From UHGV virus genome UHGV-0180032: a stretch of DNA of 64,000 bases; one strand, 5' to 3'. The stretch comes from a virus. Below the pieces are notes generated by a model. It was not told the DNA's origin. It saw nothing but the letters and a program-made list of their open reading frames with translations, and made no database searches. This document shows, piece after piece, positions 8,148-54,473 of this stretch. Position 1 is the stretch's first letter. Each line of letters starts with the position of its first letter. Made by a program: the position numbers and the translations under genes.

Positions 8148-8164
8148 TAACCCGCTTATAAAAT

Positions 8165-8195
8165 ATTGGGGGGGGGGTAAGCTACTCCCCCCGAT
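8165..8195 (+). promoter_or_regulatory. G-tract hairpin element, copy 1
   Basis: att-G10-taagctact-C6-gat; 30 nt upstream of tail fibre ATG. Confidence 0.4.
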
Positions 8196-8224
8196 CTTTA
8201 GCTCCCGATAGAGAACTTAATATC

Positions 8225-14303: not shown

Positions 14304-14354
14304 ATCGGGGGGGGGGTGAAATGTTTTTAGCCAACATTTTATGTCTCCCCAATC
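14304..14354 (+). promoter_or_regulatory. G-tract hairpin element, copy 2
   Basis: atc-G10-...-CCCC-aatc with an internal sub-hairpin; just upstream of SD/GTG of 14372 gene. Confidence 0.35.
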
Positions 14355-14981: not shown

Positions 14982-15029
14982 GGTAGTAGGGGCTAAGCCC
15001 CTACTACCTTTCTTTTTTTTTATTTTTTC
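14982..15029 (+). terminator. intrinsic terminator
   Basis: Stem ggtagtagggg/cccctactacc, loop ctaag, followed by long T-run. Confidence 0.65.
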
Positions 15030-15074
15030 TCAGATATATATTACCTAGAGGAGAGCGAAATTTACATTCGCTCT
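15028..15074 (+). promoter_or_regulatory. conserved promoter-like box plus stem-loop, copy A
   Basis: tctcagatatatattacctagaggagag followed by hairpin agagcg/cgctct; near-identical box at 18331 and 54431. Confidence 0.45.
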
Positions 15075-18330: not shown

Positions 18331-18373
18331 TTTCAGATATATATTACCTAGGTGAGAGTTCAGCTACTCTCAC
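18331..18373 (+). promoter_or_regulatory. conserved promoter-like box plus stem-loop, copy B
   Basis: tttcagatatatattacctaggtgagag with hairpin gtgagagt/actctcac; upstream of 18404 gene. Confidence 0.45.
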
Positions 18374-23060: not shown

Positions 23061-23065
23061 TCACA

Positions 23066-23100
23066 GGGTGGGGGTAATCCCCACCCTCTTTTCTTTTTTG
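23066..23100 (+). terminator. intrinsic terminator
   Basis: Stem agggtgggg/ccccaccct, loop gtaat, then T-run. Confidence 0.7.
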
Positions 23101-23123
23101 TGTAAAATAGGAGTTAAACGAAA

Positions 23124-26096: not shown

Positions 26097-26100
26097 TTAA

Positions 26101-26126
26101 ATCGGGGGGGGGTGACCTCCCCCGAT
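26101..26126 (+). promoter_or_regulatory. G-tract hairpin element, copy 3
   Basis: atc-G9-tgacct-C5-gat palindrome directly after stop of 25860 ORF. Confidence 0.4.
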
Positions 26127-33558: not shown

Positions 33559-36500
33559 TTAAGATGTAAACATAAGATTGAACTGGAGTTTGTCGATATC
33601 GCGAGTTTCTGCCGGATTCACGGCATCGTACGCGGTCGCTACGTAAACGGTTAGCGTACCGTTCGCGTAAGACGATTTCACCGGTGGGTTAGTTCCGGAC
33701 TGACCATCTCGCACAATGAGTGTAGGTTCACTTGGGAGATTGTCAAACTGACCCTTAACCGCTTTATATACCAAACCCGATTGCGCAGCCAGTTCAGTGT
33801 CCGTAAAGACAAAGAACGGTGTGTCGATATCAGCCTGTTTGATTGTAGTACCAGACTCGACGTCAATCAACTGTACCGCCCCAAACTTCGTACGATAACT
33901 TCCATACTCGTTCTTCGGAATAACGAACGTGACATGAACACGAACCTCCTCGGCGGGTTTAAACCCACTGTGCTCTTTTTCCAGGTACTGGTTGGCGGTT
34001 AACGTTACCGTTTGTTCAGTCATCGTACCACCGGCCTGGTTTATTGCATACCGAGCTTCAACAATACCGGTTGGTGCAGCAAGTCGCAGTTTCAGAGCAC
34101 GATTCGCCGTTCCTGGATTACCTGGCACCTGAACGCGCAAACTCAATGTTAGGTAAGCATTCGTTCCGGTAGTCGGTTTCGTATACGCACCAATCCATTT
34201 CATGTTCGCAGACGCTGCCTGCGTGTTCTCAGAAGCAGTGGCTGTCGCAATGTTAGCAGCTACCGCTTTCTGCCAGAATTGGTCAGCGCAGTTCTCATAC
34301 GCTACCCTGGCCACGCTCTTATAACCCGAATACGTTTCCTGAATTGGTAACTTAGGACGCGTCGTAATGCCAGACAGTGAACCCCATTTCTGACCGTCAA
34401 CATACCCTTCACCTTTTGACGCAGACGCCGTAGGTGCTTTAACAGGCTTGTTAACCAGCGTTAATAGAGGACCCGTCTTTCTGTCAAACGCTGCTGCAAC
34501 ATCATGTTGGTCGATAATCGCTGCGTGGTCTTCCAGTTCTTTCACACGGCCCAAGCGTTTTACTTTGTCGATACGGATATCCGTAATACGGTTGGAATCA
34601 GTGGTTACTGTCCCGACGAACAGTCTCGTTGAAGTATCAGCTAACTGCTCCAAACCGATACGGTATTGCGCAGTAGAACCCGACACCTCAGCGTGCACGT
34701 AGAACGTCTGGTTAGCGTGGTTAGACGGGAATTCGCTGCTTAAGTCCACAGACCACGTTGGGAGCGTGTAACTGCTGCTACCGAAGTCTAATTTGACTTC
34801 TTCCGTCAAATATAGAATCCAGCCTTCTGCTGTCTCCACACCGGCAATAATAACAGCCTGACCTTCGGTTGAGAACGTCGTGTCGTTAACAAACTCTGCG
34901 GCTGTATACGCGTTACCTGAACAGAAAACACGGTCAGCTTTAGAGTAAATCAACGCCATCTTGTCCCAATCACCGGCACCCATAAAGCAGCCTGATTCTG
35001 GTCTATGTGCAGGGGCCATCTGTCGTAACTGTGATTTACCTGCAACGCGTGTCCAACCTGAACCAGGGTCGAAGGTATATTTCGCAGCGTAGCCCAGGGC
35101 GTTTAAGTCCCCGATATTTCGGGTAGTTAACGTATAAGGTAGCCAGATACCGAAGTTAGTTCCATCCACAGATGCAAAAATAGGCTGTCCCACGCGCCGC
35201 GTTTTACCACCCCCTTCTTCCCTCAAAGACTGATAACTTAAACCATAATCGAGGTCTAAGAACCAGTCCACCAACTTAAAGGTAGCGGAGTTGAAACGTA
35301 AGTAGCCGTTCTCTTTAGATGGGCTCACCATGAAGTAATAGATGTCCAGAATTCGACGTCCGTTACTTGAGGTTTTCATGCACGAAACTTGCAACAAGTC
35401 AAATTCGCACACGGTGTTGATACCCAACATCCAAAGAGCAAACAATGCATTACCGGTTTGATGGGCAGCACTAATACGTTCGTTCGCGTATCCGTTCGCT
35501 TCACCGGAAGGCGCACCGTCGACGATCATCCGAATCATTTTCTGCCGATCGGCTTCTTCTAACGTTAAACGTTCGGAGGACAACGCGAAATTACCGTAGA
35601 TGTTGCGATACGGGAACGTTTCTGCTTTGGTCAAATACCAACCGTTTAACTGTCCATGACGCTCCTCAGGGATCATACACGCAGCCATACAGCTAAGCTG
35701 CTCGTAAAGCGTCGCATCAACTTCACGACGGTTGTTGTTCGGACCGTACCCACTATACCCAGAAACATCGTAAGGTTTGTTCGGATCAACTTCCACTTCG
35801 ATCGTGTAACGGTTACGAGGGTTCGATAACCAGACCTTATTCGAACCACCAATCCCTACTGGATAAGACAAACCGATGGTGTAAATGGAGCCACGGCCTT
35901 TATCCCAGGTAAACGTTCCTTCGCCCGAGGTGTTGTTTGGGTTATCGTAACGCAGATAATCGAAAAGCTCTCTGCCTTGTGTACTCTTAATAGAAACATT
36001 AGGCATTTGGTCCGCATCGGCAATTTGCCAACAGGAAAGCATCATTCCTGTACCGTTGGGTTTAGCATACGTCGCGAAACAACGGTTGTTTGCCTGGCCA
36101 CCACCCCACTTACGATTGGTTCCTACAGTTGAACCATCTGCGAACGAGAGTGTAGTAGTAGCATCAGCCTTGATGGGGAAGCGTTCGCGGCCTTCTAACG
36201 TAACCTTGCCCGTCAACGTATCGATTGTAAAACTTGTTGCCCATTGAAGGAAATTAATCGTCGTACCGTCGGCCGCTGCAAACCACACGGTAGGCATATG
36301 GTTCACACGAATCACGCTATCGCGCACAGCACACGCGTGGTTACATTCTGGACCGTGAACAAAGTTACGCCCGATCGTCCATTTAGCACGACCCTCCGGT
36401 GTGAGATATGTAAAGAATTGACCCGTTTGCGACTCTTCGGTTTTCTGACCAATACGCAAGCAGAGGTTATCTCCGAATTGTCCCATCTCGCCGGTTAGAG

Positions 36501-38745
36501 TTACACGTTCAAATTCTAACGTAGTGTTAGTAGACAAATCGGCCTTACGTAGACGCCAAGCTGCTACGGCGTAAGCGGAGTTATTTACCGTTGAACGGAG
36601 AAGATAAACGTAGTCCTCAACCAACACGACATCGTCAGCTTCCGGCCACGGGTTCCAGGTTTGTTCCACAGTACCACTGGGGTTGCCGTTACGGTACACG
36701 GGCATCGTAACGCGACATACCACCGTGTGCTTAGTGTGGTCCATCGAGCCATTAAACAGCACCAAATAACGGTTATTGTCAGAACCCAGGCAAATAATCG
36801 CTTCCTGGCCACCGATCAAAATAGCTTTTAGGGTCACTCCAGGATATTTACTCATCCCGGCAGGGTGATATTTCACTGAGGTCTGCTGCGGATTTACAAA
36901 CGCGTTTGACGTGTCAATGTCAGCATAGCCGTAATAAATAGCTTCCGTACCCGGCACGCCGTTAGAACCGTTACGGAGCGAATAAACCTTACCCTGCTGA
37001 TACCCAACAACCCCTTTCTGGTAAGACTGGTTTTTGGTGTAGCCTGCGTAGTTGCCTAACGCTGGGATAGGTAAGAAGTTTTTATTACCGAATTTCGCAC
37101 CGCCTACTGTCCATGCCGGTAAGATGGTATTCAGTTTATCAGAGACCTTCTTAATCTCTTTTGCGAACAACCACCCTTGACGTGACGTGACAGCTTTATC
37201 GTTAGTGGTGTCAATTGCATCCCACAGCTGTAAGATACCATCAACCGTTGCACTACCAATCGGGACGTTATCCAAGTCAGCAGTGGTGTGGGTGTGCGTC
37301 TTCAAACTCTTGTTTTTCAACACGTTCGTTAACGCTTTTGTCACAGGCTTAGCACTCGGTATGGTGTTATCCATCTTATCGATACCGAAATCGGTTTTCG
37401 TTAAGGTTAACACCATGTTGTCGCCCGTCTTAACAAACCCTTTACCGTTAACGGTATAGTCATCGTCAACGTACAAGTCCAACCGGTCTTTTAATTCAGT
37501 TACGGCTTTCTGGGAGATAGCAGTACCTAACGCCGCAGACGTAGAGATATTCGTAATCGAGAACAACCCATAAACTGATTCGGACGCTGTGGGAATATTC
37601 GCGTTTAACGTGACCGGGTTAGTCTGTTTTGCGGTACCGTACGGTTTTACTGTGTCTGACGCTTTGAAATACGCGTTTGCTTCAAGCAACGTTACTGACG
37701 TCAGATACATGTTCACCATTTCTGGTGTAACCAGGTACACAGAGTTATAAACCGGTGCTAATACGTCCTGCTCTGACCCTGAGTGAACCCAAAGTGTATT
37801 CAGACCCGCACTGAATTCAACCGCTAAACCCGATTCGTTGTTGTCCTGGTCTGCTTTAATCACTAACGGTTGTGGCGAGGTAATTAACCACTTATCACCA
37901 CGAATACTGATGATGTGACCACCTGACGTTTTAAACGTTAATTCATTACCGTTCGTGGTGCCCCATCGACCGTAAACGGTGCCGAGGGCTTCACCCATTA
38001 ACTTGTCAACGTCGGATTGCTCAATACCCGCTGACCCCATCAGCGTAGCCAATTCGTCAATCGTTAACCCAAACGCTTTTGTGGCGTCAACCGCACGTCC
38101 TAATACGGGGAGAGCAGCAACGTCATCAGTGGTATAGTGATGCGCGTTAGGATTACGGTGATGCTGGTATAATTCTTCGTCGAAAACCTTTTTCCCGTTC
38201 TCGTAAATCAGGTTAGTGACTTCACTGAACGCAGCATCTAATTCCGTAGAACGTTTGATGATTTTCTTGCGAATGTCTTCTAAAGCCTTAACGACCTCGT
38301 CCCTCAGAATCGCTTCTTCTAAGTTAGCAGGCGGGTCGATAGGCTGAATAACCGGCGCATACGCCATTAGTTCAGACCAGTCCACGTTACGTGGGTCTTT
38401 CAGGTCAGTACGAACTAAGAACTTCCCGATTTCAGATTGCGGTACACGGTATTGACGTGCTACCCCTAAAATCTCGTATTCGATTTCTGTTGCGGTAAGC
38501 AACATAAACCCGCCGTAAATCTGATCCTGCTCAGCTTCGGCGAGTTCTTTAAAGTAATAGCCTAAATAGTAGTCCAACCCCTCAATCAGAGTACGACGTC
38601 CGTTAGGCGCGGTATCGTCGGCTACTGTGAGTTTTAATCCGATACGATAAAAAGGTCCTTCGGGTGGAATGACCACGTTAAATCGGTTAGGGTACGTCGC
38701 TGTGCTTAGCGTACCGTTAAACTGCGCCGCGTCTTCTCTCGGCAT
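33559..38745 (-). CDS. giant tail-fibre/tailspike-like protein (1728 aa)
   Basis: N-terminal PPEGPFYRIGLKL...GLDYYL module shared with neighbours; long ORF. Confidence 0.7.
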   Translation of the reverse strand: MPREDAAQFNGTLSTATYPNRFNVVIPPEGPFYRIGLKLTVADDTAPNGRRTLIEGLDYYLGYYFKELAEAEQDQIYGGFMLLTATEIEYEILGVARQYRVPQSEIGKFLVRTDLKDPRNVDWSELMAYAPVIQPIDPPANLEEAILRDEVVKALEDIRKKIIKRSTELDAAFSEVTNLIYENGKKVFDEELYQHHRNPNAHHYTTDDVAALPVLGRAVDATKAFGLTIDELATLMGSAGIEQSDVDKLMGEALGTVYGRWGTTNGNELTFKTSGGHIISIRGDKWLITSPQPLVIKADQDNNESGLAVEFSAGLNTLWVHSGSEQDVLAPVYNSVYLVTPEMVNMYLTSVTLLEANAYFKASDTVKPYGTAKQTNPVTLNANIPTASESVYGLFSITNISTSAALGTAISQKAVTELKDRLDLYVDDDYTVNGKGFVKTGDNMVLTLTKTDFGIDKMDNTIPSAKPVTKALTNVLKNKSLKTHTHTTADLDNVPIGSATVDGILQLWDAIDTTNDKAVTSRQGWLFAKEIKKVSDKLNTILPAWTVGGAKFGNKNFLPIPALGNYAGYTKNQSYQKGVVGYQQGKVYSLRNGSNGVPGTEAIYYGYADIDTSNAFVNPQQTSVKYHPAGMSKYPGVTLKAILIGGQEAIICLGSDNNRYLVLFNGSMDHTKHTVVCRVTMPVYRNGNPSGTVEQTWNPWPEADDVVLVEDYVYLLRSTVNNSAYAVAAWRLRKADLSTNTTLEFERVTLTGEMGQFGDNLCLRIGQKTEESQTGQFFTYLTPEGRAKWTIGRNFVHGPECNHACAVRDSVIRVNHMPTVWFAAADGTTINFLQWATSFTIDTLTGKVTLEGRERFPIKADATTTLSFADGSTVGTNRKWGGGQANNRCFATYAKPNGTGMMLSCWQIADADQMPNVSIKSTQGRELFDYLRYDNPNNTSGEGTFTWDKGRGSIYTIGLSYPVGIGGSNKVWLSNPRNRYTIEVEVDPNKPYDVSGYSGYGPNNNRREVDATLYEQLSCMAACMIPEERHGQLNGWYLTKAETFPYRNIYGNFALSSERLTLEEADRQKMIRMIVDGAPSGEANGYANERISAAHQTGNALFALWMLGINTVCEFDLLQVSCMKTSSNGRRILDIYYFMVSPSKENGYLRFNSATFKLVDWFLDLDYGLSYQSLREEGGGKTRRVGQPIFASVDGTNFGIWLPYTLTTRNIGDLNALGYAAKYTFDPGSGWTRVAGKSQLRQMAPAHRPESGCFMGAGDWDKMALIYSKADRVFCSGNAYTAAEFVNDTTFSTEGQAVIIAGVETAEGWILYLTEEVKLDFGSSSYTLPTWSVDLSSEFPSNHANQTFYVHAEVSGSTAQYRIGLEQLADTSTRLFVGTVTTDSNRITDIRIDKVKRLGRVKELEDHAAIIDQHDVAAAFDRKTGPLLTLVNKPVKAPTASASKGEGYVDGQKWGSLSGITTRPKLPIQETYSGYKSVARVAYENCADQFWQKAVAANIATATASENTQAASANMKWIGAYTKPTTGTNAYLTLSLRVQVPGNPGTANRALKLRLAAPTGIVEARYAINQAGGTMTEQTVTLTANQYLEKEHSGFKPAEEVRVHVTFVIPKNEYGSYRTKFGAVQLIDVESGTTIKQADIDTPFFVFTDTELAAQSGLVYKAVKGQFDNLPSEPTLIVRDGQSGTNPPVKSSYANGTLTVYVATAYDAVNPAETRDIDKLQFNLMFTS

Positions 38746-38839
38746 CGTAAAGACTCCTACTTTTAAATAAAATGGATACCCCTCCCCATTACAGGGAGGG
38801 GTTACCTACGGACACACAACTGCCCGCAGGCAGCCTGTC

Positions 38840-41800
38840 CTAAGTACGATCCCCTAACTGCTTCCCGTTAAGTTCTCGTTTCAGTACAGAAAGTATCCAT
38901 TTCCACGCTTTACTCGTGATGTGGTACGGATTGCGTTTCTCCATTAAGAACTGCTTTTCACCGCTACGCAGTTCGAAGCTCTGCGCATTAAGCTGATCCT
39001 GACGAGTGCTTTGCTCATCGGTCACATCTAACGAACAGGTAAAGTTAAGCTCGTAACCTTCAGGATTATTACCCGGCGGGTCTAAGACAATATAGATGTC
39101 CTGACCTACACGTAAGTCGGTGGCCGTGATACTAATCGCTTTACCTACGTCAGCGCTGGTCGACAGAGCAAACTCCGCACTGTCCGTAGACGCTAAGAAT
39201 GGGTCTTTCCCTGCGTCACCGATAATCACCTTACCTGGCCAGTTACTTTTTATCGTTCCCGTCACTTTTGCAATTCGGTACTGTTGTTTATCGGCACCTT
39301 GTGCAAAACGGAGAATGAGTTTGTGACGATAACGACTTGCAGCAGCCTTAGTCGTACTCCACTCGTTGTTCCAGGAAGTGTGCAGTTCGTTGTTCTTCGC
39401 CATCAACGCACCGCGAGACAGCTTACGATCAAAGAACTGCGCAGGTAACTGCCCATCATGAGAAACCGCAACGCTTCCCTGACCAGTTGGCAAGGCAATG
39501 CTCTCCGTAACGCGATATTTCTGACTAATCTCATAAGTCGCAGGGTCAATCACAGACTGACTATAATCAGCGTCTTTGTTATCAGCCAAATACCCAACGG
39601 ATGAATCCAGATACGACTCAAACAGCGAACGTAAGTAATGATACTTATCAATGTTGATGTTGTTCGTAACCGGATCAATCAGCGCATGGCTAATCGTTAC
39701 TCGGCATTTCGCACTCAGTTCTTTAAACGACAACCCTATTCCGTCACCGGTGAAATAATCCACTAAGTCGAACGGGAATTGAATTTCCAACTGACGTTGT
39801 TTAACTGTCGTCGTCCCAAACTGCGAGAACGACAACGCTAAACGCAGCACACGCGTACTTACGTTATAACGGTAACGAATCATCCCACGAGGTGCATGGT
39901 TTGCAGAGATTTTATCTCGAGCGGCACCCCAGCCAATCAAATCGAGAATCGCGGGGTTGGTTTCTTCACCGTTGAACAACACGTCCTTAAACGTTGCATT
40001 CACCGCTGTTTCCCCAGACTCTTCCATTACCAACGGAATGTCAGTAACGTCTGAAACTGAACGGGAACCAATCCCCAACTTGCACGCTTTGGCCGTCAGA
40101 TCGATACGTACGTAACGGCGTTTAACACTCGCCCCTTGCGTTGACGTACACAGCACCAAATCCGGTGCAGCAGTAAGTGCTTGTGTTCCACCGACGTCGT
40201 CAACGTCAAACACAAACGAACCTTCGAATGTCGGTGCGTTGTTTTCTTTCGGGTTAAACGGTGTAAACCAGCAATACGGTGTAGCGCCTTCAGGTATCAC
40301 AACGTACTGAAGACTGGACTTCACGTTTTGGTTGTGTGCGTAAGTATAAAGACCACGACTGACAAGATGGAAAACATCACCTGTACCGGCTGCTAACGCT
40401 TTCCTAAAGATACACGCTCTCGGTTCGGCAATGGCACGGTTTAATAACGGCAACCGTGGGTTATCCGTTAACGCCCAGTCCACAGAACTGAGTCCGTGTG
40501 CTTTACGCGTGGCGATGTGTCCACTAACCTCGGCACTTTTCCCGAAATCAAACGTGGTTTCGAACCCTACCGTTTTATTCGCGTAATTCTCACCAGCAAC
40601 AATATCAACGTAACCGATATAACCGCGTTCAGGATCAACCGCGACGCTCTGAATCGGTTCAGCACGCGAATACAGAGAGCCTGTGAGCATGTTAACGTAC
40701 AGATAGTGACGAATCCCTACGTGCGTGGTAACAAACTCCTGGAGAAGCTCTACGCGCGTTTCAGGGCCACTGAAGTAAACGGGGTAATCCCCATCGTAAA
40801 CTTCAAACTGTACCGCTGCGGACTTAGCCGTATCGCTACATTCGGCTTTAACCGCTATTGTGTAGTTTTCAACGTCTGATGACGTTTCGTACACTGCAAC
40901 GAGCGGAGACTCGCCTGACGCTGCCAGGTTACCGTTAATGTAAACCGTAACCGGACCGCCGCCCGCAGCATAAACCCAGAGCTTTGATTGGTACGCCCTT
41001 ACACGCGTTTTTGCCAGTACCGTAACCACTGACTGGTCACCCATCTGAGTAGCGGTTTTACCTACCGCAACAGACTGGAATCCCATCAACGGCGGTTCTT
41101 CAATACCTGTCCAGTTGATTCCCGTACCGTTACTCACCTTACCCGTAGGCCAAGTCAGTTCAAGCTGGTTGTTAGGTGAGAACCAGTTAAACATCGGGGT
41201 GGTTTGCAGGTCAATCGCACCAGTAACGGTACTGTCGCCTTTCGTCCCGTCCAGCAAATAGAAATATTTCAAATCCTGAACAGAGATTGACGTACCCTGG
41301 CTATTAAAACGCCAGTCCGCACCTTTCACAGCAGCAAAATCGGTTACCGTACCTTCTTTCGCGTTTGCAATTGCCGCAGCGACCACATCTAAACGTGCTG
41401 AAAGCTCTTTTAGGATGTTCGGTACCACCGCTCGGTTTTCAACTAAGCCGTTCTGGTTAGTTGCGTAACGACCAATACCGTAAATCGTCTGCGAGGCTTT
41501 ATAAATGCCTAACTCTGACCAGTCGTGATGGTGACCGACATCTGCTAAACCACTAACCGAAGCATTCAGTGCGGTAGACAACGGTTTGTCAAGGTCTGCG
41601 GTGTTATCCGCTTGCCCTAATCCCAGGTCAGCTTTCGTGATTGTCCTGGAACCGTCGTTCATCGGCTTACCGTTAATCATGGTCGTTTTAGTCACGTACC
41701 CTGATAAGTCGGTTGAATACGGCGTTAATGACGCAGGAGTTGCTGCAACCCCAACCGTTTCTGTGCCTTTACCGGTTTTAAGCTTAACAACACCTTTTTC

Positions 41801-43024
41801 AGCGGTGGTCGCTTTCGTCGGGTCGATAGTCCCCACGATGGGATCGGCACGAGAACCTTTACCGGTAAAACTAATCCCGTTACGGCCTTCGATATACACT
41901 TTGGAGTCATCAGGATCGCTACCGCCACTCCCGCCAGCATCAGGGTCTTGCTGATACTCCATCAGCGCTGTGGTGGTCAACAACGGGTTACCGTTCAGGG
42001 TGAGTTTGTTCATCCCTAAAGCGTCACCGGTTGACTCGATGCGTAAGGTGTTTTTACCCGCACGCCAGTTAATGTAACGCCCCGCACCTGTGCCTTCCAG
42101 ATGCCCTACCGCTAATACCACAGAACCGTTGGATTTTAACGTAAAGCCATCATTCGCAAAAATGATTTCGGATTCACCGTTTTTCGAACGGAATTGTGCG
42201 CGGTTTCCAGACACCGTACAGTTAAACACGCCCCGTACTTCCGAAGAAATCCAGTGGGAGATATACGTGTCAATAACTGACTGTGGTAAACGAAACGCTT
42301 TCAGTTCATCCGTTAACGCTTTCAATTTTAACCCGTACGCCATAAAGGTGTCAGGTGTTTTCAGGTTAACGGGATGGGCATTAATTTGTGCGCTCGTGGT
42401 TTCGTGCGGGTTCGTCGCGGCGATATGTGCTGGGTAGTTAAACGCTTCAATTTCTTTCCCCAACGCAGTCACTAGCACTTTAACTTCGGCTATTTTATCC
42501 TTAATTAGCTGGTTAGCGTCATCGGTTTTCAACTCAATATCGTGAATCGCTGACGCTAAGTATTTTTTGTTCAGCAAATCCGCCCAGGACGTTGCCGCAG
42601 GCGTAGCTGGGTATAACGACGGTCTACCGTCTAACAACAGCCAGTCTGCACTGACTGGGTTATTCAGATATTTCACCAACTCGTCGAGCATGTCAACGAA
42701 CGGGTCGTAGAACGTACCGCCGAGCATTTGTCCTTCAAAGGTTACGATCCCTTTGATGGATGGGTTGATAAGGTGTACCCCACAATACACGTTGGCTGCT
42801 ACCGAGTCATCCAGTTCCGTCAGCTGATATTGCAGTTCGTAGTCCACCCCACGGCTCAGTGGGGTGGTTGAACCTGGTTGTCTGACGACTAAGTCTTCAA
42901 AGAACGGGCGATGGTCTAAAATCACCACCCGGTCATTGTTGTTTTCTGACCCGATGATACGCTCCTCTAAGAAGTGATTCTCGGTTTTCGTCCCCCGAGG
43001 ATCGTAAGGATACGCTTTCATCAA
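38840..43024 (-). CDS. giant tail-fibre/tailspike-like protein (1394 aa)
   Basis: N-terminal HRPFFEDLVV...GVDYEL module; long ORF. Confidence 0.7.
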   Translation of the reverse strand: MMKAYPYDPRGTKTENHFLEERIIGSENNNDRVVILDHRPFFEDLVVRQPGSTTPLSRGVDYELQYQLTELDDSVAANVYCGVHLINPSIKGIVTFEGQMLGGTFYDPFVDMLDELVKYLNNPVSADWLLLDGRPSLYPATPAATSWADLLNKKYLASAIHDIELKTDDANQLIKDKIAEVKVLVTALGKEIEAFNYPAHIAATNPHETTSAQINAHPVNLKTPDTFMAYGLKLKALTDELKAFRLPQSVIDTYISHWISSEVRGVFNCTVSGNRAQFRSKNGESEIIFANDGFTLKSNGSVVLAVGHLEGTGAGRYINWRAGKNTLRIESTGDALGMNKLTLNGNPLLTTTALMEYQQDPDAGGSGGSDPDDSKVYIEGRNGISFTGKGSRADPIVGTIDPTKATTAEKGVVKLKTGKGTETVGVAATPASLTPYSTDLSGYVTKTTMINGKPMNDGSRTITKADLGLGQADNTADLDKPLSTALNASVSGLADVGHHHDWSELGIYKASQTIYGIGRYATNQNGLVENRAVVPNILKELSARLDVVAAAIANAKEGTVTDFAAVKGADWRFNSQGTSISVQDLKYFYLLDGTKGDSTVTGAIDLQTTPMFNWFSPNNQLELTWPTGKVSNGTGINWTGIEEPPLMGFQSVAVGKTATQMGDQSVVTVLAKTRVRAYQSKLWVYAAGGGPVTVYINGNLAASGESPLVAVYETSSDVENYTIAVKAECSDTAKSAAVQFEVYDGDYPVYFSGPETRVELLQEFVTTHVGIRHYLYVNMLTGSLYSRAEPIQSVAVDPERGYIGYVDIVAGENYANKTVGFETTFDFGKSAEVSGHIATRKAHGLSSVDWALTDNPRLPLLNRAIAEPRACIFRKALAAGTGDVFHLVSRGLYTYAHNQNVKSSLQYVVIPEGATPYCWFTPFNPKENNAPTFEGSFVFDVDDVGGTQALTAAPDLVLCTSTQGASVKRRYVRIDLTAKACKLGIGSRSVSDVTDIPLVMEESGETAVNATFKDVLFNGEETNPAILDLIGWGAARDKISANHAPRGMIRYRYNVSTRVLRLALSFSQFGTTTVKQRQLEIQFPFDLVDYFTGDGIGLSFKELSAKCRVTISHALIDPVTNNINIDKYHYLRSLFESYLDSSVGYLADNKDADYSQSVIDPATYEISQKYRVTESIALPTGQGSVAVSHDGQLPAQFFDRKLSRGALMAKNNELHTSWNNEWSTTKAAASRYRHKLILRFAQGADKQQYRIAKVTGTIKSNWPGKVIIGDAGKDPFLASTDSAEFALSTSADVGKAISITATDLRVGQDIYIVLDPPGNNPEGYELNFTCSLDVTDEQSTRQDQLNAQSFELRSGEKQFLMEKRNPYHITSKAWKWILSVLKRELNGKQLGDRT

Positions 43025-43034
43025 AAAATTCTCC

Positions 43035-46000
43035 TTAATCGCGAATGATTACCGCCTGCACTTTATTGTTGGTGTCGATAAACGACATTACGCGCTCCTT
43101 GTTAAGATAAGGAGGTATCGGCAACGCAGCATAATCCGCCAGGTTGTTATTAAACTCGGTTGCCACTAACGCATTAAGCGTTTCAGGGTCTGAGCTTGTC
43201 CCGGCCAATTCCACGACGCGTACACGATTTAACGAGGAGTAGTTGCTGATATAATCCAACAGCGTACCGTAGAGTTTATTCCCGGTTATGCTGTCCGCCG
43301 TAGAGCGGATATTGGCACGCACTTCGTCCTCATAAAGTCCCCCTAATCCGTAGTAAATAGGGGTGTACGGATCGTTAACGATAGGCGCGAGGTTGAACCC
43401 GGTTAAACGGTCGGTCAGCGAGATTTTCTGCGTAGTACCACCTGCCGCCGTACAGCTTACGTATTTATCTGCCGCAGACAAATACACCACAATAGTGTAA
43501 ACAGTACCTGCTAAGGTCAGCGTTGCGTTAAACGTTAATTCGTTATTCGCACCACGCGTGTGGGTAAATGTCACATCAGGTTGTAACGTACTCCACGGTG
43601 CTGGGGTAACACGTTTGGTCGGCGTGAAGCCTAACACCACAGATCTCCCGTTACCGAAGTTTAAACCAAACCCGGCGTAACAATACTCACCGTTGCTGTC
43701 AGTTAAACGATAACCACGGGTGATAAGTAACGACAACCGCATAAACTCGTCATCGGTATTTTTCCAGCAACCCAGGATGGTTTCTAGCACCGTACCGGTT
43801 TTTGCGTTGCTTTCGGTTTCCCAACTGACTCGCATCCCCGTATTGTTAAATACTGGGAACAGGTTGTGGATAAACCCGTGAACGTTATCACTTACCCCTT
43901 TCGCATCAAACACCCACTTCGACGCAAGCTGGTCGTATTTCACACCGTCGAGTGCTTTATATCCGCCGCCAACCACATAACGCCAGTCTGCTTCACCACG
44001 CACAACCGCTTGAAGTCCAGAAGCCCAGCAGGGCGCACCTACTGTTAAATTGCTTAACCCCAGCACTGCACGTGAAGCAGAACGCTGAATGTGTGCGTTG
44101 TCATTAGCGACATGGTCTTTCAGCTCACGGAAATCCCCTAACCGTGTCACGTTACGTAGTTCAGTAACGAACACTTCAGAAAGGTCGTTAATACCGATCA
44201 ACCCCACGCGCGTCATGATATCCGTTTCAGCCTGACTGTAGCTGTCGTGAATAATGTACTTCGCTTTGTTATCGACAATGTCAACAAAAATCCCTGCGTA
44301 AACTTCCTTATTCAGATTCGGGAAACGTTCGGTAACGTTAACCGACATCAACGGTACGTTGTACGTTTCACCACCAATGAAATACGTGGAAGCAGGAAGT
44401 GTCACCAGGATTTTGTCTTTAACCGTAACGTCAATTAAGTCGTTACCGGACTTACCAAAGCGAATAATGTCAACTCGCGCACCCGAGTCAACCCCGCCGA
44501 CGGTATTCTCCAGTTTTTCAATCTGGGAAGTCTGCGCCATCACCACACTACTATCGAGTGCTAAAGTGACATCATCCACATCCAGACCGAACTTAATCAG
44601 ACCCCGTTTCGTGGTGTCTGCGTTTTCAACACCGAACACAGAAGACGGGTGTTGGTGAACCTTCGGTGAGTATTTGTCTAACTCAGTCTGCTGTGCAACA
44701 GAAATCGGCAAGTCGAGGTCCGGGGTATTCGCAACATTACCTAAACCAAAGGTAATTTTGTCGATAGTCACCGAACTGGTAAGCTGCATGTCGTTGATAT
44801 ACGACTTGGCAGCAACTAACTTACCGGTAAACTCTGCGTCTAGTTTTTCAATTAACGCGGGTGTAGCTGCAAGGTTTTCAGCCGTACCGAATTCGTCCGT
44901 TAACTGCCAGCAGGCTAACGTTGTGACGTCGTTGGCAACCGGAAGGATAAACGTTGCGACAAACGGTGATGCTTTAATCCCGCTGCCAGTAAGTTCCACG
45001 GTAGACGTCGACGCACCGTAGAACAGACCTGTACCGCCTGCGGTATTACCCGGCAAATACGGACCGACCGTAGTGGGGTCTAAGAGTTTCTTACCACGCC
45101 ACAACAGTCCACGGTCATCGGGGTATAGCACAAGCTGGTTATCGCCTGCCTGTAACGTAACAGGGTTGTTACCCGCATTAACATCGGTGGAGCCTTGACC
45201 GATAAACTTAATGGACTTCGGATCAACGACGAACTGGGCACCTAAACGTTTTTCGTCAACTACACCAGGTGCTTTCTTAATGGTAACCGTGTTACCTTTG
45301 TTTTGCGAACTAATAGAGACGCCGTCAGCAACATTATTGATCAGCGATTTAAAGTGATACCGATTCTCTAATGCTTCTAACGCAGAGTCCATGTTATCGA
45401 AGTTAATCCGGGCGCTATACGTTTTACCGTTTACGGTAATAACGGCGTCAAACACGTTCCCTGTACGCTTCAGTTGAAAACGCAGCGTAAAATCCCCATC
45501 CGGTATTGCTGGATCAGGAGCTTGAGAAATATACCGAACTGACGGTACCGGACTCCCGTAACCGTGCAACGACAGTTCGATAGTAAGAGTACCACCCCAG
45601 ACTTCACCGAAAATCTCTACGTACTTACCGGAGTTACTACCGGGATTTTCGTAGAAACGTAAACCGGCCCTACCGACTGCCTCATTACCAGACGCTGTTT
45701 TACGTCCAGTAACAATAAAGTCAATATCTTGCAGGTTAGCGGGTACCGCATTAAAAGAAGCACTAAATCCATTCTTCGTTCCTGTGTAACGAAGCGCGCC
45801 GTGATACGTGCGGCCTTGACTAACATAGCTTTCGCTAAAATAAGGACTCACGTATTTAGACATCGAAACCGGATCAACTTCTGTCGTGAACGAAGTAAAA
45901 CCGGGCAGCGTTCCAATGGTTCCGTCGGCCGTTTTCGTAGTTGACGTGCGCAGTAGTTTCTTTTGCGCAGCCAATGTTGCTTGCGTTGGATACTTAGCAT

Positions 46001-47357
46001 TAACATAATCTGTTAACTGCGGCTTCGTTTTTCCGTAAGCTAACGCTGTATCCGTCGCAATACCATTCAACTCTAACGCACGGATCGGGCCCCACGTATC
46101 GTTGTGCGGGTTGTCCTTACGTGTAACGTGTTCGTGCGCAGGTGCGTTGCGATAGAGCTGTTCTACTAACTGATGGTACTTAACGATTAGCTGATAAACG
46201 TCATTACTTACGTCTGCTTCTGGCGCACCAGGTAACGCAAGGAATTGAGCGTAATCGTTTTCAGCCGCCCACCAGTTTAAGTTAACGTTGGTTTTGTATT
46301 TCAGCCACTTCGCAACATCCGTTTTGGTGTAACCTGCTGAAAATTCGTCTGGCGGTGTGTCAACGTTAAAGGTGTAGTCCATGGACTGTTTGTTAGTCGT
46401 CACCTCGATAACGTATACACCGTTACCCGGTTGACGAACAACGCTAAACGTTAACTCGCCTTTTAATTCGTCGTCGGTCAAACCGTTGATTAACGTATAA
46501 TCATAATCGGTCGAACCGCTGCCTAACGCAACCGTCAGTCGTAGACCGATTTTACGTTGTTTTAATTGGAGACGAAGGATACTTGCACCACCGTTCGCGT
46601 AGCACAGCATCCAATCGATTTGTTCGTTCGGGTTAATACTCCCCATGTTCGGAAAAATAGCCGGGATACGGTATTTCATCGACAGGGAATATTCATTTAA
46701 CGTGGTGGTTTTGTACGTAACGGAGAAACGACGTTTAGCGGTGTTGTAAGTATACCCACCTTTGTTGTCGTACGTTGCGTACTGTTCAGATGTGATAACC
46801 GTACCATTAGCACGGTGTTCGATATCTAACGTGTTACGTGCAATCGGGTCTACCCGATTCACCACGTTACCTAACGAATCACCTAAGCCTGCAATGGCCT
46901 GCATTAATTCCAGTTCACCTTTCCAGTTTTCCCAGTCGAACTGAATGTCAACCGGTGGAAAGTAAACGTCGCCGATAACGGTATCCCATTGACACGCAGA
47001 CGGGTATTTATCTTTATTGAGTTCGCGTTCTGCGGTAATCTGTTCTTGGGTCGCTTCACCACAACCTACGGCGTGGTAATCTACCGTGAAATTCGATTTG
47101 TATTTGTCGTTAACAATCCAAATCATCCCGTGCACGAGATAGGCTGTGCGCAACATACCGGTCTCGTACGGGTGTGTAATAACGTAATCGTCGCCTAAGG
47201 TCAGTATTTTGCCGCCGCTCTTGACCACCAGGGATGTGGTGAAAAAAGGGGCGTGGGCAGGTACCAACATTCGGTACTTCGTACCAATGACGGCGACCGC
47301 TTCACCGGTTATTTTATTCCCCGGTTCTTTGAAGTGTGGGTCTAGGACGACAGCCAT
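43035..47357 (-). CDS. giant tail-fibre/tailspike-like protein (1440 aa)
   Basis: N-terminal AHAPFFTTSLVV...GDDYVI module; long ORF. Confidence 0.7.
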   Translation of the reverse strand: MAVVLDPHFKEPGNKITGEAVAVIGTKYRMLVPAHAPFFTTSLVVKSGGKILTLGDDYVITHPYETGMLRTAYLVHGMIWIVNDKYKSNFTVDYHAVGCGEATQEQITAERELNKDKYPSACQWDTVIGDVYFPPVDIQFDWENWKGELELMQAIAGLGDSLGNVVNRVDPIARNTLDIEHRANGTVITSEQYATYDNKGGYTYNTAKRRFSVTYKTTTLNEYSLSMKYRIPAIFPNMGSINPNEQIDWMLCYANGGASILRLQLKQRKIGLRLTVALGSGSTDYDYTLINGLTDDELKGELTFSVVRQPGNGVYVIEVTTNKQSMDYTFNVDTPPDEFSAGYTKTDVAKWLKYKTNVNLNWWAAENDYAQFLALPGAPEADVSNDVYQLIVKYHQLVEQLYRNAPAHEHVTRKDNPHNDTWGPIRALELNGIATDTALAYGKTKPQLTDYVNAKYPTQATLAAQKKLLRTSTTKTADGTIGTLPGFTSFTTEVDPVSMSKYVSPYFSESYVSQGRTYHGALRYTGTKNGFSASFNAVPANLQDIDFIVTGRKTASGNEAVGRAGLRFYENPGSNSGKYVEIFGEVWGGTLTIELSLHGYGSPVPSVRYISQAPDPAIPDGDFTLRFQLKRTGNVFDAVITVNGKTYSARINFDNMDSALEALENRYHFKSLINNVADGVSISSQNKGNTVTIKKAPGVVDEKRLGAQFVVDPKSIKFIGQGSTDVNAGNNPVTLQAGDNQLVLYPDDRGLLWRGKKLLDPTTVGPYLPGNTAGGTGLFYGASTSTVELTGSGIKASPFVATFILPVANDVTTLACWQLTDEFGTAENLAATPALIEKLDAEFTGKLVAAKSYINDMQLTSSVTIDKITFGLGNVANTPDLDLPISVAQQTELDKYSPKVHQHPSSVFGVENADTTKRGLIKFGLDVDDVTLALDSSVVMAQTSQIEKLENTVGGVDSGARVDIIRFGKSGNDLIDVTVKDKILVTLPASTYFIGGETYNVPLMSVNVTERFPNLNKEVYAGIFVDIVDNKAKYIIHDSYSQAETDIMTRVGLIGINDLSEVFVTELRNVTRLGDFRELKDHVANDNAHIQRSASRAVLGLSNLTVGAPCWASGLQAVVRGEADWRYVVGGGYKALDGVKYDQLASKWVFDAKGVSDNVHGFIHNLFPVFNNTGMRVSWETESNAKTGTVLETILGCWKNTDDEFMRLSLLITRGYRLTDSNGEYCYAGFGLNFGNGRSVVLGFTPTKRVTPAPWSTLQPDVTFTHTRGANNELTFNATLTLAGTVYTIVVYLSAADKYVSCTAAGGTTQKISLTDRLTGFNLAPIVNDPYTPIYYGLGGLYEDEVRANIRSTADSITGNKLYGTLLDYISNYSSLNRVRVVELAGTSSDPETLNALVATEFNNNLADYAALPIPPYLNKERVMSFIDTNNKVQAVIIRD

Positions 47358-47424: not shown

Positions 47425-48687
47425 GTGACTACTGCTTATCAAGTGCGGCCTGACAGCGCTTTTGGCTTCTCTCGTGAGACCCGTACCTGGGGAGCCATCG
47501 ACGTCACGCAACCCTTAGAAACCTTGTGTTCTGATTACCATATTTTCGAAGTCGGTCTGAGTGCGCTTGGTAGAGACTATACGTTAATTAGCCAATATCA
47601 CCTCGCTGACTTACAAAACCGTACCGATACGTTACAAGACTGGCTGAATGAAAAAGCCGGTGTGGTTATCTCTGCGTTGAAAGACGGTTTACCGACGTTA
47701 GAGTTTGATTGGGCACACTACCAATCGATTAATGCCGATGTTCCAGTAGAAACCTACCTGTGCCCTCCTGGTTATCACTACAGTCAAGAATTCAGTATAG
47801 ACGATGCTGACGACGTTGTGGTGGTGTGTGAAGATAAATGGAAAGACAAGTACCGTAACGGGGTGTTGTACAACATCAACGGACAGTGGGTGCCGCATCA
47901 ATCCGATACTGTTGGTGTACGTTTACCGGGTGCAGGTAAAATAGTACGTCGCGCAGGGACACCGGATATCGGGTGTATGGTCTTTAGTAAATTGGGGAAT
48001 GTTAAAACGTACCCCATTGCTAATTTGACCTTAAACAAACTCGACACCACTCGCGACTATTACTCCACGTTAATGATTTCTTTACCGGAATCTATTACAG
48101 GTAAAACCGTGGGGTTTGTTATCGGGGGATTGATACACTGGTTACCGGTTACTGGGTACTTCTCCGACAAAGCCATTATGGTATCGCTACCGAACTTTGA
48201 CGTTGCGCGTACGGTGTTAGAAACCCGACGTTATTACGACTGGGACAGCATTGGCGTGGGTGATTTGTCATCACCGACCAACGTACAGCGTATCCGTAAC
48301 CCAGAAACGTTAAAGGCGCTTTTAACCCACGAGTCGTCGTTTATCTTTACGGTGGATAATCCGTATCTGGAAGAAGAAGTTGTGGGGGTTTCTCACAACG
48401 CTATCTGGGGGCGTTTATACCTTAAAGATCCTACTGACCCTGATGGGGAAAAACAACTGGGGTATCTGTTAAACCGCTTCGGTAAAACCGTTGCCTATTG
48501 GCCGACGTGGGAAGAAGGAGAATGGGTATTTAACACCACGGAGTTCGACAGTCAAAACTACGTGTTCCGTGAAGCCCGCTGGTATAACCAGAATAAAATT
48601 AACGATGCACAGGCAATCGTAGGGCCTTTCGGTCCCTGGGAAAAAGTCTATTTAGAAATGCATCGTTTCCGTGCAAGAAAAAAATAA
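47425..48687 (+). CDS. hypothetical protein (about 420 aa)
   Basis: Track ORF 47209..48687 trimmed to GTG 47425, because upstream part overlaps the minus-strand giant gene; gagg SD. Confidence 0.5.
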   Translation: MTTAYQVRPDSAFGFSRETRTWGAIDVTQPLETLCSDYHIFEVGLSALGRDYTLISQYHLADLQNRTDTLQDWLNEKAGVVISALKDGLPTLEFDWAHYQSINADVPVETYLCPPGYHYSQEFSIDDADDVVVVCEDKWKDKYRNGVLYNINGQWVPHQSDTVGVRLPGAGKIVRRAGTPDIGCMVFSKLGNVKTYPIANLTLNKLDTTRDYYSTLMISLPESITGKTVGFVIGGLIHWLPVTGYFSDKAIMVSLPNFDVARTVLETRRYYDWDSIGVGDLSSPTNVQRIRNPETLKALLTHESSFIFTVDNPYLEEEVVGVSHNAIWGRLYLKDPTDPDGEKQLGYLLNRFGKTVAYWPTWEEGEWVFNTTEFDSQNYVFREARWYNQNKINDAQAIVGPFGPWEKVYLEMHRFRARKK

Positions 48688-48692
48688 GTAAC

Positions 48693-48734
48693 CTCCTACC
48701 CTCTTAGAGGGTAGGAGTAGCACGTTTTTTTTTT
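48693..48734. terminator. bidirectional terminator between convergent genes
   Basis: 11-bp stem ctcctaccctc/gagggtaggag; T10 downstream on plus strand, T-run on minus strand. Confidence 0.65.
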
Positions 48735-48737
48735 CAC

Positions 48738-48947
48738 TTAGTCTTTTTTGTAGACGATCGCGTTACCGTGCAGTTTGTTGTTACCGGAAATACCGATAAC
48801 TTTAAACGCTTCACCGCCGATCTTTTCAGCTTCGACAGCCAGCTTAGCAGTAACGTCGTCTACGGTGTCACCGAAAGCGCTTACGTTACCAATTTTCTTG
48901 AACTCTTCAGGAATGTGTTCGGCAGAAGAGAATTCTTTAATAGCCAT
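48738..48947 (-). CDS. BhsA/YcfR-like DUF1471 domain protein without signal peptide
   Basis: KIGNVSAFGDTVDDVTAKLAVEAEKIGGEAFKVIGISGNNKLHGNAIVYK closely resembles recalled E. coli BhsA domain; in-frame stop right upstream of ATG; SD ggagag. Confidence 0.65.
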   Translation of the reverse strand: MAIKEFSSAEHIPEEFKKIGNVSAFGDTVDDVTAKLAVEAEKIGGEAFKVIGISGNNKLHGNAIVYKKD

Positions 48948-49147
48948 AGCTACTCTCCAGTTAAAGAAAGGAAGGACTGTATCGTGTTACAACCAAAGCA
49001 TAAGATAGCTCCTCCCGGAAGGGAGGAGTAGAGTGCGCGAAAAAAGTGGCCTGCTTAACTAAACGACGAGGTTTAAGAAAAGTGTTGATAAGAAGCTTAC
49101 CAACGTCAGGTCACAATATATAATACCAACGTAAGAAAAAGGGGAAA

Positions 49148-50113
49148 TTAGCGCGGGCCTGAAGTTGGACCATGTACACCGTCGTGGATGTGTACGCTGA
49201 AGGTAATACCGGAAATCACCGCATCCTTAACCGTAAAGACACCCACACCTTCACCCGTACCACCGTATTTGAAGTTCTTAGCAACTTCCAAATTACCGGT
49301 GAACATTGCTTCATTACCCTCTTGCTTAAAGTTCGGCGTTTTATACGTTGTGGAACCGGAGGCTTCGGTTAGCCACGTTTCTGTTTTAAAGGTAACCGAT
49401 TTCGACGCTTCGGTATTCCGAACTTCGCATTTCTCATTAATCGTTTTCGTTTCCAGGTTAATCGAACGTTTTGCGTAAATGAACGCATCCTCTTTGTTGA
49501 TGTTCACTTTCGAGAGCATCGCGTTCTCAAAACCTAAATCGTCTTCCACCGAGTTAATGTAATACTTATTCCCTTTATGGTCAACGCACTGCCACGATCC
49601 GTTAGCGTTATCGAATTGGAATAACCACGCCGCTTTCTCCCCGTTCACCATGCTTGTTCTTAGGGTAACGTGTTTGTCAATCGTTGAGACGTTTAACACA
49701 TACGCGTTCGACAAGTCATCCGCCATCTGGTTTTCAGGGTCAGCAGACCACGCGTAAACCGCATCCTCTAATCGCTTAACGTTAGCGAAATTCAAATCAA
49801 TCCAAAAATAAATATCAGTTTGCCCTAGACGTAGCAGAATAACGTAATCTTCACGCTTAACGTCTGGGGAATTAATTCGGTTGGAATTAAACTTCCACCA
49901 CTTTGCAGTAATCGTGTTACCGGTTTTAATCGTTAGGTTGTCGGTAGCACCCCCGGCTTCGTGTACCTTTTCAGCGGTTGAAGAAACGGATTGTACAACG
50001 GTAGGGTTCGCAAAGTTGGTTTCAATGGGAATAACACTCACCCGATCCGTACCACGAGGTTTATCTTCCGCGACGATACCAATCGAGAAAAAGTCAACGC
50101 TGGATTTCTCCAT
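49148..50113 (-). CDS. hypothetical protein (321 aa) with C-terminal His-rich motif (VHIHDGVHGP)
   Basis: Track ORF; possible structural protein, unverified. Confidence 0.55.
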   Translation of the reverse strand: MEKSSVDFFSIGIVAEDKPRGTDRVSVIPIETNFANPTVVQSVSSTAEKVHEAGGATDNLTIKTGNTITAKWWKFNSNRINSPDVKREDYVILLRLGQTDIYFWIDLNFANVKRLEDAVYAWSADPENQMADDLSNAYVLNVSTIDKHVTLRTSMVNGEKAAWLFQFDNANGSWQCVDHKGNKYYINSVEDDLGFENAMLSKVNINKEDAFIYAKRSINLETKTINEKCEVRNTEASKSVTFKTETWLTEASGSTTYKTPNFKQEGNEAMFTGNLEVAKNFKYGGTGEGVGVFTVKDAVISGITFSVHIHDGVHGPTSGPR

Positions 50114-50140: not shown

Positions 50141-50193
50141 ATCAGATATATTTTACTTAGGTGAGTAGGGGCTGAACTCGCACTTCAGCCCCT
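50141..50193 (+). promoter_or_regulatory. degenerate copy (D) of promoter-like box plus stem-loop
   Basis: atcagatatattttacttaggtgag followed by perfect 10-bp hairpin aggggctgaa/ttcagcccct; lies in divergent intergenic region. Confidence 0.4.
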
Positions 50194-54430: not shown

Positions 54431-54473
54431 ATCTCAGATATATATTACTCAGGTGAGAGTTAAGATTAACTCT
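54431..54473 (+). promoter_or_regulatory. conserved promoter-like box plus stem-loop, copy C
   Basis: atctcagatatatattactcaggtgagag with hairpin agagtta/taactct; upstream of secreted-protein gene block. Confidence 0.45.

Follow-up and report, generated by a model that had tools for sequence, protein, structure and literature searches.

A signal-less DUF1471 gene beside the tail spike gene of SPN3US-like jumbo phages

The 64,000-nucleotide (nt) stretch of UHGV virus genome UHGV-0180032 that we analysed, hereafter the window, is part of a jumbo phage related to phiEaH2 and SPN3US and contains, on its minus strand at 48738-48947, an open reading frame (ORF) that starts with ATG and encodes a protein of 69 amino acids (aa; MAIKEFSSAEHIPEEFKKIGNVSAFGDTVDDVTAKLAVEAEKIGGEAFKVIGISGNNKLHGNAIVYKKD). 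We are highly confident that this is a real gene under purifying selection and that its product is a DUF1471 protein of the phage family phrog_8068, to which SPN3US gp172 belongs. Most bacterial members of the corresponding Pfam family, PF07338, carry a Sec signal peptide, which is present neither in the window protein nor in its phage homologues. The gene occupies a constant slot next to the gene for the central tail spike and is exchanged between phage lineages as a small cassette. While the present evidence establishes no mechanism for it, the reading that we favour, and hold tentatively, is that of a late, low-copy protein associated with the tail or baseplate, which would reach the cell envelope on the virion.

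Identity and distribution of the gene

Three features define the gene and its start.

48738-48947, minus strand: signal-less DUF1471 (BhsA-like) gene of the phrog_8068 / SPN3US gp172 family, assigned from profile matches, fold and the ratio of nonsynonymous to synonymous substitution rates (dN/dS)
48953-48958, minus strand: Shine-Dalgarno sequence GGAGAG, 5 nt before the ATG; a GGAG/GAGG-type site stands at the same place in all relatives
48987-48989, minus strand: in-frame TAA stop that closes the frame upstream, found by reading-frame scan

The homology to DUF1471 is confirmed because sequence and fold searches agree. PF07338 (YdgH/BhsA/McbA-like, DUF1471) is the sole Pfam match of the protein and scores 40.3 bits against a gathering score of 27 bits (E=3.4e-10), with residues 17-67 covering profile positions 2-55 of 55. 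Among NCBIfam profiles the BhsA profile scores highest, at 47.4 bits, over its mature part only (residues 13-67 against positions 30-85 of 85), and the nearest bacterial relatives of the protein likewise score best on this profile; identity to any bacterial representative is at most about 40%. The cut-off of the BhsA/YcfR equivalog NF047859 is 90 bits, which rules out a true BhsA orthologue and leaves a protein that is BhsA-branch-like instead. The match to phrog_8068 is full length (E=1.1e-31, residues 1-69 against profile positions 1-70 of 70), and a sequence search of the PDB leads to Salmonella YahO (2ma4, 2noc). An AlphaFold2 model made from a 36-sequence alignment, with a mean predicted local distance difference test score (pLDDT) of 85.7, has the order strand-strand-helix-strand-strand (beta-beta-alpha-beta-beta), and its best Foldseek matches in the PDB are the DUF1471 structures 2m2j, 2jna, 2ma8, 4evu and 2noc (template modelling score, TM, 0.64-0.74; probability 0.99-1.00), which comprise the solved domains of YdgH, SrfN/STM0082 and YahO. 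Two plus-strand ORFs that overlap the gene, 48768-49031 and 48775-49008, were rejected as shadow ORFs, since both homology and dN/dS favour the minus-strand frame.

The model also superimposes on RcsF (2y1b, 6t1w), an outer-membrane lipoprotein sensor, with a Foldseek TMq of 0.82 that exceeds its score against the DUF1471 structures. The two share a small alpha/beta fold, and this is probably all that the likeness means: identity is 11%, there is no relationship at the sequence level and the window protein, unlike RcsF, has no lipobox.

Several observations bear on the missing signal peptide. The upstream TAA (read from 48989 to 48987) lies 14 codons before the ATG with no ATG, GTG or TTG between them, and in 10 of 11 relatives the annotated ATG likewise has an in-frame stop shortly before it; the proteins of all eleven are 68-73 aa long and begin M-S-I-[KR]-E or M-[KQ]-[EQ]-F. 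The N-terminus is hydrophilic, with a maximal Kyte-Doolittle 10-mer value of 0.40 over the first 35 aa; by the same measure phage-type proteins range from 0.15 to 1.41 and 28 bacterial homologues from 1.55 to 3.13. In an alignment with these 28 bacterial representatives, the phage protein starts where the mature bacterial proteins start. The closed frame, the lack of an alternative start, the hydrophilic N-terminus and the relatives together rule out a hidden upstream start or signal peptide, and by sequence criteria the missing Sec signal is a genuine, conserved departure from the bacterial family. The original prediction, made from the letters of the window alone, had described a likeness to the mature domain of BhsA-type proteins encoded without an N-terminal signal peptide; the Pfam and BhsA profile scores, the fold and the alignment bear out the likeness, and the start region, here and in the relatives with their conserved Shine-Dalgarno site, bears out the missing signal. 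Its wording that the in-frame stop is immediately upstream was slightly loose for a stop that does exist but is 14 codons away. It had also called a cytoplasmic copy of such a protein unusual; the loss of the signal is real but less unusual than was supposed, as public records already annotate such phage genes as DUF1471 or BhsA.

The first E. coli genome already revealed DUF1471 proteins, of which an enterobacterium encodes 5-11 paralogues. In bacteria they are found in Enterobacterales only, are almost all exported and have been linked to stress, biofilm and virulence, with no biochemical function defined (PMC4092069, PMC11705850). The window protein shares the domain and its alpha+beta fold with the enterobacterial members of PF07338 (BhsA/YcfR, YbiJ, McbA, YhcN, YahO, SrfN and YdgH); unlike them it has no Sec signal, hence no periplasmic targeting, and is encoded in the tail module of a virulent jumbo phage. 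It is closest in kind to SPN3US gp172 and the rest of phrog_8068, with which it shares a length of about 69 aa, the N-terminus M-[AS]-I-[KR]-E, the lack of a signal and an identical slot between the spike gene and a gp171-like gene. It differs from gp172 in being a type I allele, about 43% identical to it, and in a shortened upstream spacer.

The family is represented in about 70 records of SPN3US/phiEaH2-like jumbo phages, at about 69 aa and always without a signal. By tblastn, the type I allele of the window occurs in 30 GenBank phage records, among them Erwinia phages phiEaH2, Asesino, Machina, ChrisDB, Huxley and Stratton and Salmonella phages SPAsTU and STsAS, with Cronobacter phage CR5 as a more distant match, and the SPN3US-like type II allele occurs in 43, including the Salmonella SPN3US/SPFM group, phages of E. 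coli and Proteus, and Erwinia phages Caitlin and SNUABM_29. IMG/VR adds 16 loci, all on contigs of 107-248 kb, and three uncultivated genomes encode a protein identical to that of the window. For the wider distribution we relied on an exhaustive HMMER search of 1.84 billion cluster representatives (50% identity clusters), a word-indexed protein search having given four matches. The exhaustive search returned 40, of which only four are signal-less clusters of the phage type; nearly all the others are bacterial with a signal peptide, and three short ones (56-73 aa) look truncated or mis-started. The family appears confined to SPN3US/phiEaH2-like jumbo phages of Enterobacterales: every cultured relative in which the gene occurs is a phage of Erwinia, Salmonella, Cronobacter, E. 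coli or Proteus, and phiKZ-like phages of Pseudomonas are without it. Across pairs with unsaturated dS, dN/dS runs from 0.03 to 0.23 (0.029 for phiEaH2 and Asesino, 0.115 for SNUABM_4 and ChrisDB, 0.121 for SPN3US and SNUABM_29, 0.226 for the window and SNUABM_4), and the gene is therefore under purifying selection. Some of the relatives are labelled "DUF1471 domain-containing protein" in GenBank and RefSeq, and others "putative multiple stress resistance protein BhsA", the latter in Erwinia phages Wellington, Kwan and Stratton, and a literature search found no paper that discusses phage DUF1471 genes. The window gene is a new representative of a phage family that is already annotated and functionally uncharacterised.

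Erwinia phage Wellington has a second signal-less DUF1471 gene in tandem, gp189 (186 aa; locus L009, 2787-3347, plus strand), directly downstream of its 73-aa gene. The DUF1471 domain of gp189 spans residues 1-68, scoring 29.7 bits in Pfam and matching the model of the window protein with a Foldseek TMq of 0.88, and the C-terminal part of about 120 residues is an acidic, low-complexity, disordered tail. This example shows that the family can duplicate and gain extensions.

The slot beside the spike gene and its control elements

The gene lies in a block of tail genes, the nearest of which are as follows.

49148-50113, minus strand: central tail spike (cell-puncturing device), 321 aa, phrog_3216, from matches to phiKZ gp164 and the Mu gp45 apex
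47425-48687, plus strand: convergent 420-aa baseplate protein, homologue of SPN3US gp171 and phiKZ gp130, from its match to 9xqd
43035-47357, minus strand: 1440-aa virion structural or fibre-like paralogue of the SPN3US gp168-170 family, from homology

Gene order here is constant in five genera (Erskinevirus, Seoulvirus, Machinavirus, Wellingtonvirus and Derbicusvirus). First comes a gene for about 320 aa, then a spacer of 184-310 nt and the DUF1471 gene; beyond a hairpin lie a convergent gene for about 420 aa and very large fibre-like paralogues. In 10 annotated relatives the DUF1471 gene has the gp173-type spike gene on one side and the convergent gp171-type gene on the other, with one inserted paralogue in Wellington; in the window the two neighbours are phrog_3216 and phrog_3337. 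Residues 4-259 of the spike protein match phiKZ gp164 (PDB 6orj, 9xph; E=1.8e-23), and its last 55 residues (266-320) match the puncturing-device apex formed by Mu gp45. The counterpart of the convergent protein, gp130, appears in the phiKZ structural atlas as a link between star lobes in the outer baseplate, immediately above the sites where fibres attach (PMC13250141). SPN3US gp171, which is essential, and gp173 vanish from tailless particles (PMC5105663; PMC10052503 supplement), which makes both of them tail proteins.

A small gene directly downstream of the spike gene is also found in phiKZ, where it encodes the PAAR spike tip gp163.1 (6p1z, 9xph; PMC13250141). The two cases are alike in gene size (88 aa in phiKZ, 69 aa in the window), in following a gp164-type spike gene co-directionally and in having convergent genes next. 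They differ in fold and family, which are unrelated (PAAR, PF05488, in phiKZ and DUF1471 in the window). The window spike should not need a PAAR cap because it has a Mu gp45-like apex of its own; the different Pfam family and this apex rule out homology to the phiKZ spike tip and leave a positional analogy only. The C-terminal 55 residues of the spike resemble an apex of the Mu gp45 / P2 gpV type, and no gp163.1-like PAAR gene is detectable in SPN3US-like phages; together these suggest that the clade may have a self-sharpened spike.

Four elements were found in the spacers on either side of the gene.

49037-49050, minus strand: conserved 14-nt box GCCACTTTTTTCGC between the spike and DUF1471 genes, found in 11 of 12 phages that span four genera
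49009-49028, minus strand: GC-rich, terminator-like hairpin with an interrupted U-tract, CUAUCUUAUG, 3' of the spike gene, from folding and a consensus scan
48999-49002, minus strand: TATG box (TATGC at 49002-48998, with its G at 48999), 52 nt before the ATG, from conservation
48693-48717, between the convergent genes: 11-base-pair (bp) hairpin with a dG of about -21, a T10 run on the plus strand and a T-rich tail on the minus strand; conserved

The hairpin at 49009-49028 lies on the strand of the spike gene, 120 nt past its stop codon, and consists of 8 bp (6 of them GC pairs) with a 4-nt loop, GGAA on the plus strand and UUCC in the minus-strand transcript; its dG is -15.8 kcal/mol and its z is -3.9. 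A consensus scan marks it as terminator-like on the gene strand with the tail CTATCTTATG, and the tail CUAUCUUAUG, with 5 U in its first 9 bases, is interrupted and passes a simple terminator scan. In most relatives compared, a GC-rich hairpin at the homologous position is followed by a canonical T5-T7 run, which merges into TTTAC, with TATGC 15-16 nt further on. The window and its closest metagenomic relative (L012) lack about 20 nt between the hairpin and the TATG box; the window has neither the T-run nor the TTTAC element there, which leaves a degraded U-tract. The reading that fits best is that the hairpin once ended spike transcription as a full terminator and has been trimmed to a probably leaky one. 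It had previously been described as strong and not a terminator: its strength holds, while the second half of that description finds no support, given the scan and the T-runs of the relatives.

All 12 phages compared keep the TATG box, at a distance of 36-66 nt from the start codon on its upstream side, amid spacers that are otherwise poorly conserved. The non-virion RNA polymerase of phiKZ has TATG as its late-promoter motif, with position +1 at the G; the motif is required there but does not suffice by itself (PMC4666361). We infer that the box in the window is a putative late promoter. On the far side of the gene, the hairpin at 48693-48717 is a probable bidirectional terminator. The gene, its Shine-Dalgarno sequence and its TATG box sit between a hairpin/terminator and this probable bidirectional terminator as a self-contained mini-unit. 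The roughly 200-nt leader as a whole is unremarkable as a structured RNA apart from its hairpins (z = -2.0; no Rfam search was made).

Two further observations concern the same spacer. The GCCACTTTTTTCGC box occurs once in the window, which rules it out as a repeated element, and in some relatives it folds with A-runs further downstream into a T-run/A-run hairpin. Right after the spike stop codon, at 49110-49135 on the minus strand, the arrangement TTAC-N17-19-TAT(N)G is followed by TGAC (CTTACGTTGGTATTATATATTGTGAC in the window) and recurs at the same place in most relatives; it may represent another promoter-like element, placed before the terminator hairpin.

Allele exchange, virion detection and possible roles

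The two allele types are about 42% identical to each other. The window protein, of type I, is 72-78% identical to its counterparts in phiEaH2 and SPAsTU. Salmonella phage SPAsTU reveals that the alleles move between lineages: its spike and gp171 homologue are 82% and 89% identical to those of SNUABM_29, whereas its DUF1471 protein is 88% identical to that of phiEaH2 and 41% to that of SNUABM_29. In a sliding-window comparison of the DNA, the nearest relative of SPAsTU switches exactly over the ORF, where identity is 73-96% to phiEaH2 against 44-65% to SNUABM_29, and reverts in the flanks.

SPAsTU (L002) 5985-6230: recombination patch of about 250 bp covering the DUF1471 ORF only, in comparison with SNUABM_29 (L010) and phiEaH2 (L001)

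The ORF is thus exchanged between phage lineages as a cassette of about 250 bp, and an intermediate, mosaic sequence was also found (P0005). Both types share the phage-specific N-terminus, so that the simplest history is a single capture followed by divergence and recombination. Among the type I and type II records, no correlation between allele type and host genus was seen. Exchange independent of the flanking genes is typical of a host-facing gene rather than of a fixed structural partner.

Exchange of exactly the ORF, out of an autonomous unit between terminators, would suit a moron-like passenger. Its product, with no part in the particle or its assembly, would work extracellularly once the host has lysed, perhaps by coating debris or neighbouring cells or by modulating matrix polysaccharide. 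Such a product could draw on the polysaccharide-binding precedent of SrfN, whose dimer binds sulfated polysaccharides; binding of extracellular polysaccharides has also been proposed for DUF1471 proteins (PMC4092069). The tandem duplication with an acidic disordered tail in Wellington gp189 would be in keeping with it. Yet a strict position in five genera and long purifying selection are unusual for an accessory moron, the GC content of the gene is fully ameliorated (43.8% against 45.7% for the window) and there is no evidence of extracellular activity; we regard this explanation as very improbable.

The same exchange, together with alleles that differ this much, might instead point to a host-facing arms-race gene. 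The original prediction had suggested that the cytoplasmic copy may be a decoy or regulator; it could, for instance, titrate a host factor handling DUF1471 precursors or perturb envelope-stress signalling. The conserved signal-less state means that the protein is made and folded in the cytoplasm, and the resemblance of its fold to the envelope-stress sensor RcsF can be added to this, with the low identity given above. Against it, no cytoplasmic DUF1471 partner is known and YdgH is functional only in the periplasm (PMC11705850), host-takeover genes of phiKZ-like phages are usually early whereas this gene sits in a late structural block, it lies behind a TATG box and not behind the 23-nt early-promoter-like motif found elsewhere in the window, and allele type does not track host genus. 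The proposal accordingly finds no support in a gene that is fixed in a block of spike, baseplate and fibre genes, preceded by a TATG box and reported, in a result that has not been reproduced, as encoding a virion protein; we consider it just as improbable as a product released at lysis, and neither of the two has direct support.

The virion report concerns SPN3US gp172 (7 kDa), which was described as the smallest virion protein, of low abundance, in virions purified on caesium chloride (CsCl) gradients (PMC5694885). Its row in the supplement of that study holds the values 4, 6, 0.86 and 81 (PMC5694885), which we read as peptides, spectra, spectra per kDa and per cent coverage. On that reading, 0.86 spectra per kDa is comparable to low-copy tail proteins. 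The presence of gp172 in the virion is plausible but unproven.

Detection in just one of several SPN3US virion proteomes would also be expected of a cytoplasmic late protein outside the virion, such as a small factor or chaperone that helps the spike, baseplate or fibre proteins to assemble and that turned up in the particles adventitiously. The gene lies inside the tail-fibre/baseplate block, its own promoter-like box and terminators would allow its dosage to be set separately, its product is small, acidic and soluble, and phages offer comparable cases of small tail-assembly chaperones that at times end up in particles. One would expect a dedicated chaperone to vary together with its client, however, whereas this allele is exchanged independently of its neighbours; in addition, no chaperone activity is known for the DUF1471 fold, and 81% coverage in CsCl-purified virions is high for a 7-kDa contaminant. 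We consider such a non-virion protein somewhat less likely than the tail role described next, to which it is the main rival, and a more serious candidate than either of the two preceding explanations.

A late, low-copy protein of the tail or baseplate is the role that we tentatively prefer. A DUF1471 domain would have been captured once from an enterobacterial host and would have lost its Sec signal; the gene would be transcribed late by the non-virion RNA polymerase of the phage from the TATG box, and the protein, made in the cytoplasm, would be incorporated in low copy into the tail or baseplate of the virion in the region of the spike. The virion, rather than the Sec pathway, would then bring the domain to the outer surface or periplasm of the next host, where, while the phage adsorbs or penetrates, it may bind a ligand in the envelope or a polysaccharide; binding of this kind has been proposed for the bacterial DUF1471 proteins, and the SrfN dimer with its sulfated polysaccharides offers a precedent. 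Because particles assemble in the cytoplasm, a signal peptide would be useless on a particle component, and the particle itself would export the domain. The fixed slot after the spike gene, the late-type promoter box, the high-coverage detection in virions and the host-facing exchange of alleles all fit an accessory protein of the tail or baseplate.

A number of results weigh against this role. The virion association comes from one data set only: gp172 was absent from 47(am1) particles in the same study, whose authors call for its status to be settled (PMC5694885), the 2016 tables of SPN3US virion and particle proteomes do not list it, and it has no row in the 2023 triplicate data set on wild-type and tailless particles (PMC10052503 supplement), where the rows go from 171 to 173. 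The 2023 data set is the deeper one and lists even non-virion proteins with 2-3 spectra. The spike and DUF1471 genes are not operonic, a spacer of 184-310 nt with a terminator lying between them, and the analogy with phiKZ is weakened in the same way, since gp163.1 follows its spike gene in an operon after a 9-nt gap and the window has a 200-nt spacer with a terminator-like hairpin. Allele type was not seen to co-vary with the flanking structural proteins, which argues against a tight structural fit. The phage proteins are mildly acidic (isoelectric points of 4.6-5.7), unlike the basic polysaccharide-binding face of SrfN, and no ligand or partner is known for DUF1471 proteins (PMC11705850). 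As for late transcription, neither transcript data nor a mapped promoter was found for this clade. The composite pattern TTAC-N14-22-TATG shows no enrichment, with 16 matches in the window where 22.8 would be expected, which rules it out as a general promoter of this phage and means that the promoter call rests solely on conservation across phages; of the eight tighter TTAC-N-TATG matches in the window, two are intergenic.

A more specific version of the tail role, which we think improbable but less so than a decoy or a product released at lysis, is that the signal-stripped domain is loaded on the spike or baseplate and delivered by tail contraction, like VgrG-linked cargo, with its alleles reflecting an arms race with an envelope target. 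If true, delivery of this kind would give the DUF1471 family its first defined molecular context. A signal-stripped copy that a phage lineage has retained over a long time, fixed beside the gene for a cell-puncturing spike, offers a simpler system for asking what DUF1471 binds, and for jumbo-phage biology it flags a small, recombining and possibly virion-borne component of the SPN3US-type tail.

Other features of the window

Beyond the convergent baseplate gene, three consecutive and very large paralogues of 1728, 1393 and 1440 aa occupy 33559-47357 on the minus strand. They correspond to SPN3US gp168-170, the "paralog family C" candidates for baseplate or fibre proteins. The 1440-aa protein, at 46-54% identity to its counterparts in relatives, is the most divergent product of the block.

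The 23-nt motif mentioned above, CAGATATAT[AT]TTAC[CT][CT]AGGTGAG, occurs in four copies, all of them intergenic, against a chance expectation of 0.01.

15031-15053, 18334-18356, 50143-50165 and 54435-54457, plus strand: copies of the 23-nt motif, from a scan of the window

The copy at 50143 is placed where the genes diverge, directly upstream of the neighbour of the spike gene. The motif resembles the AT-rich early-promoter element of phiKZ (TATATTAC) and probably marks early promoters of the virion RNA polymerase.

Intergenic hairpins in the window are of several kinds. Some are built on runs of 9-10 G, such as TTGGGGGGGGGGTAAGCTACTCCCCCC, at 8160-8200, 14320-14340 and 26100-26125. Many other co-directional junctions have GC-rich hairpins with interrupted T-tracts only, like that at 49009-49028, and canonical terminators with long T-runs are present as well, for example near 15000 and at 23061-23123.

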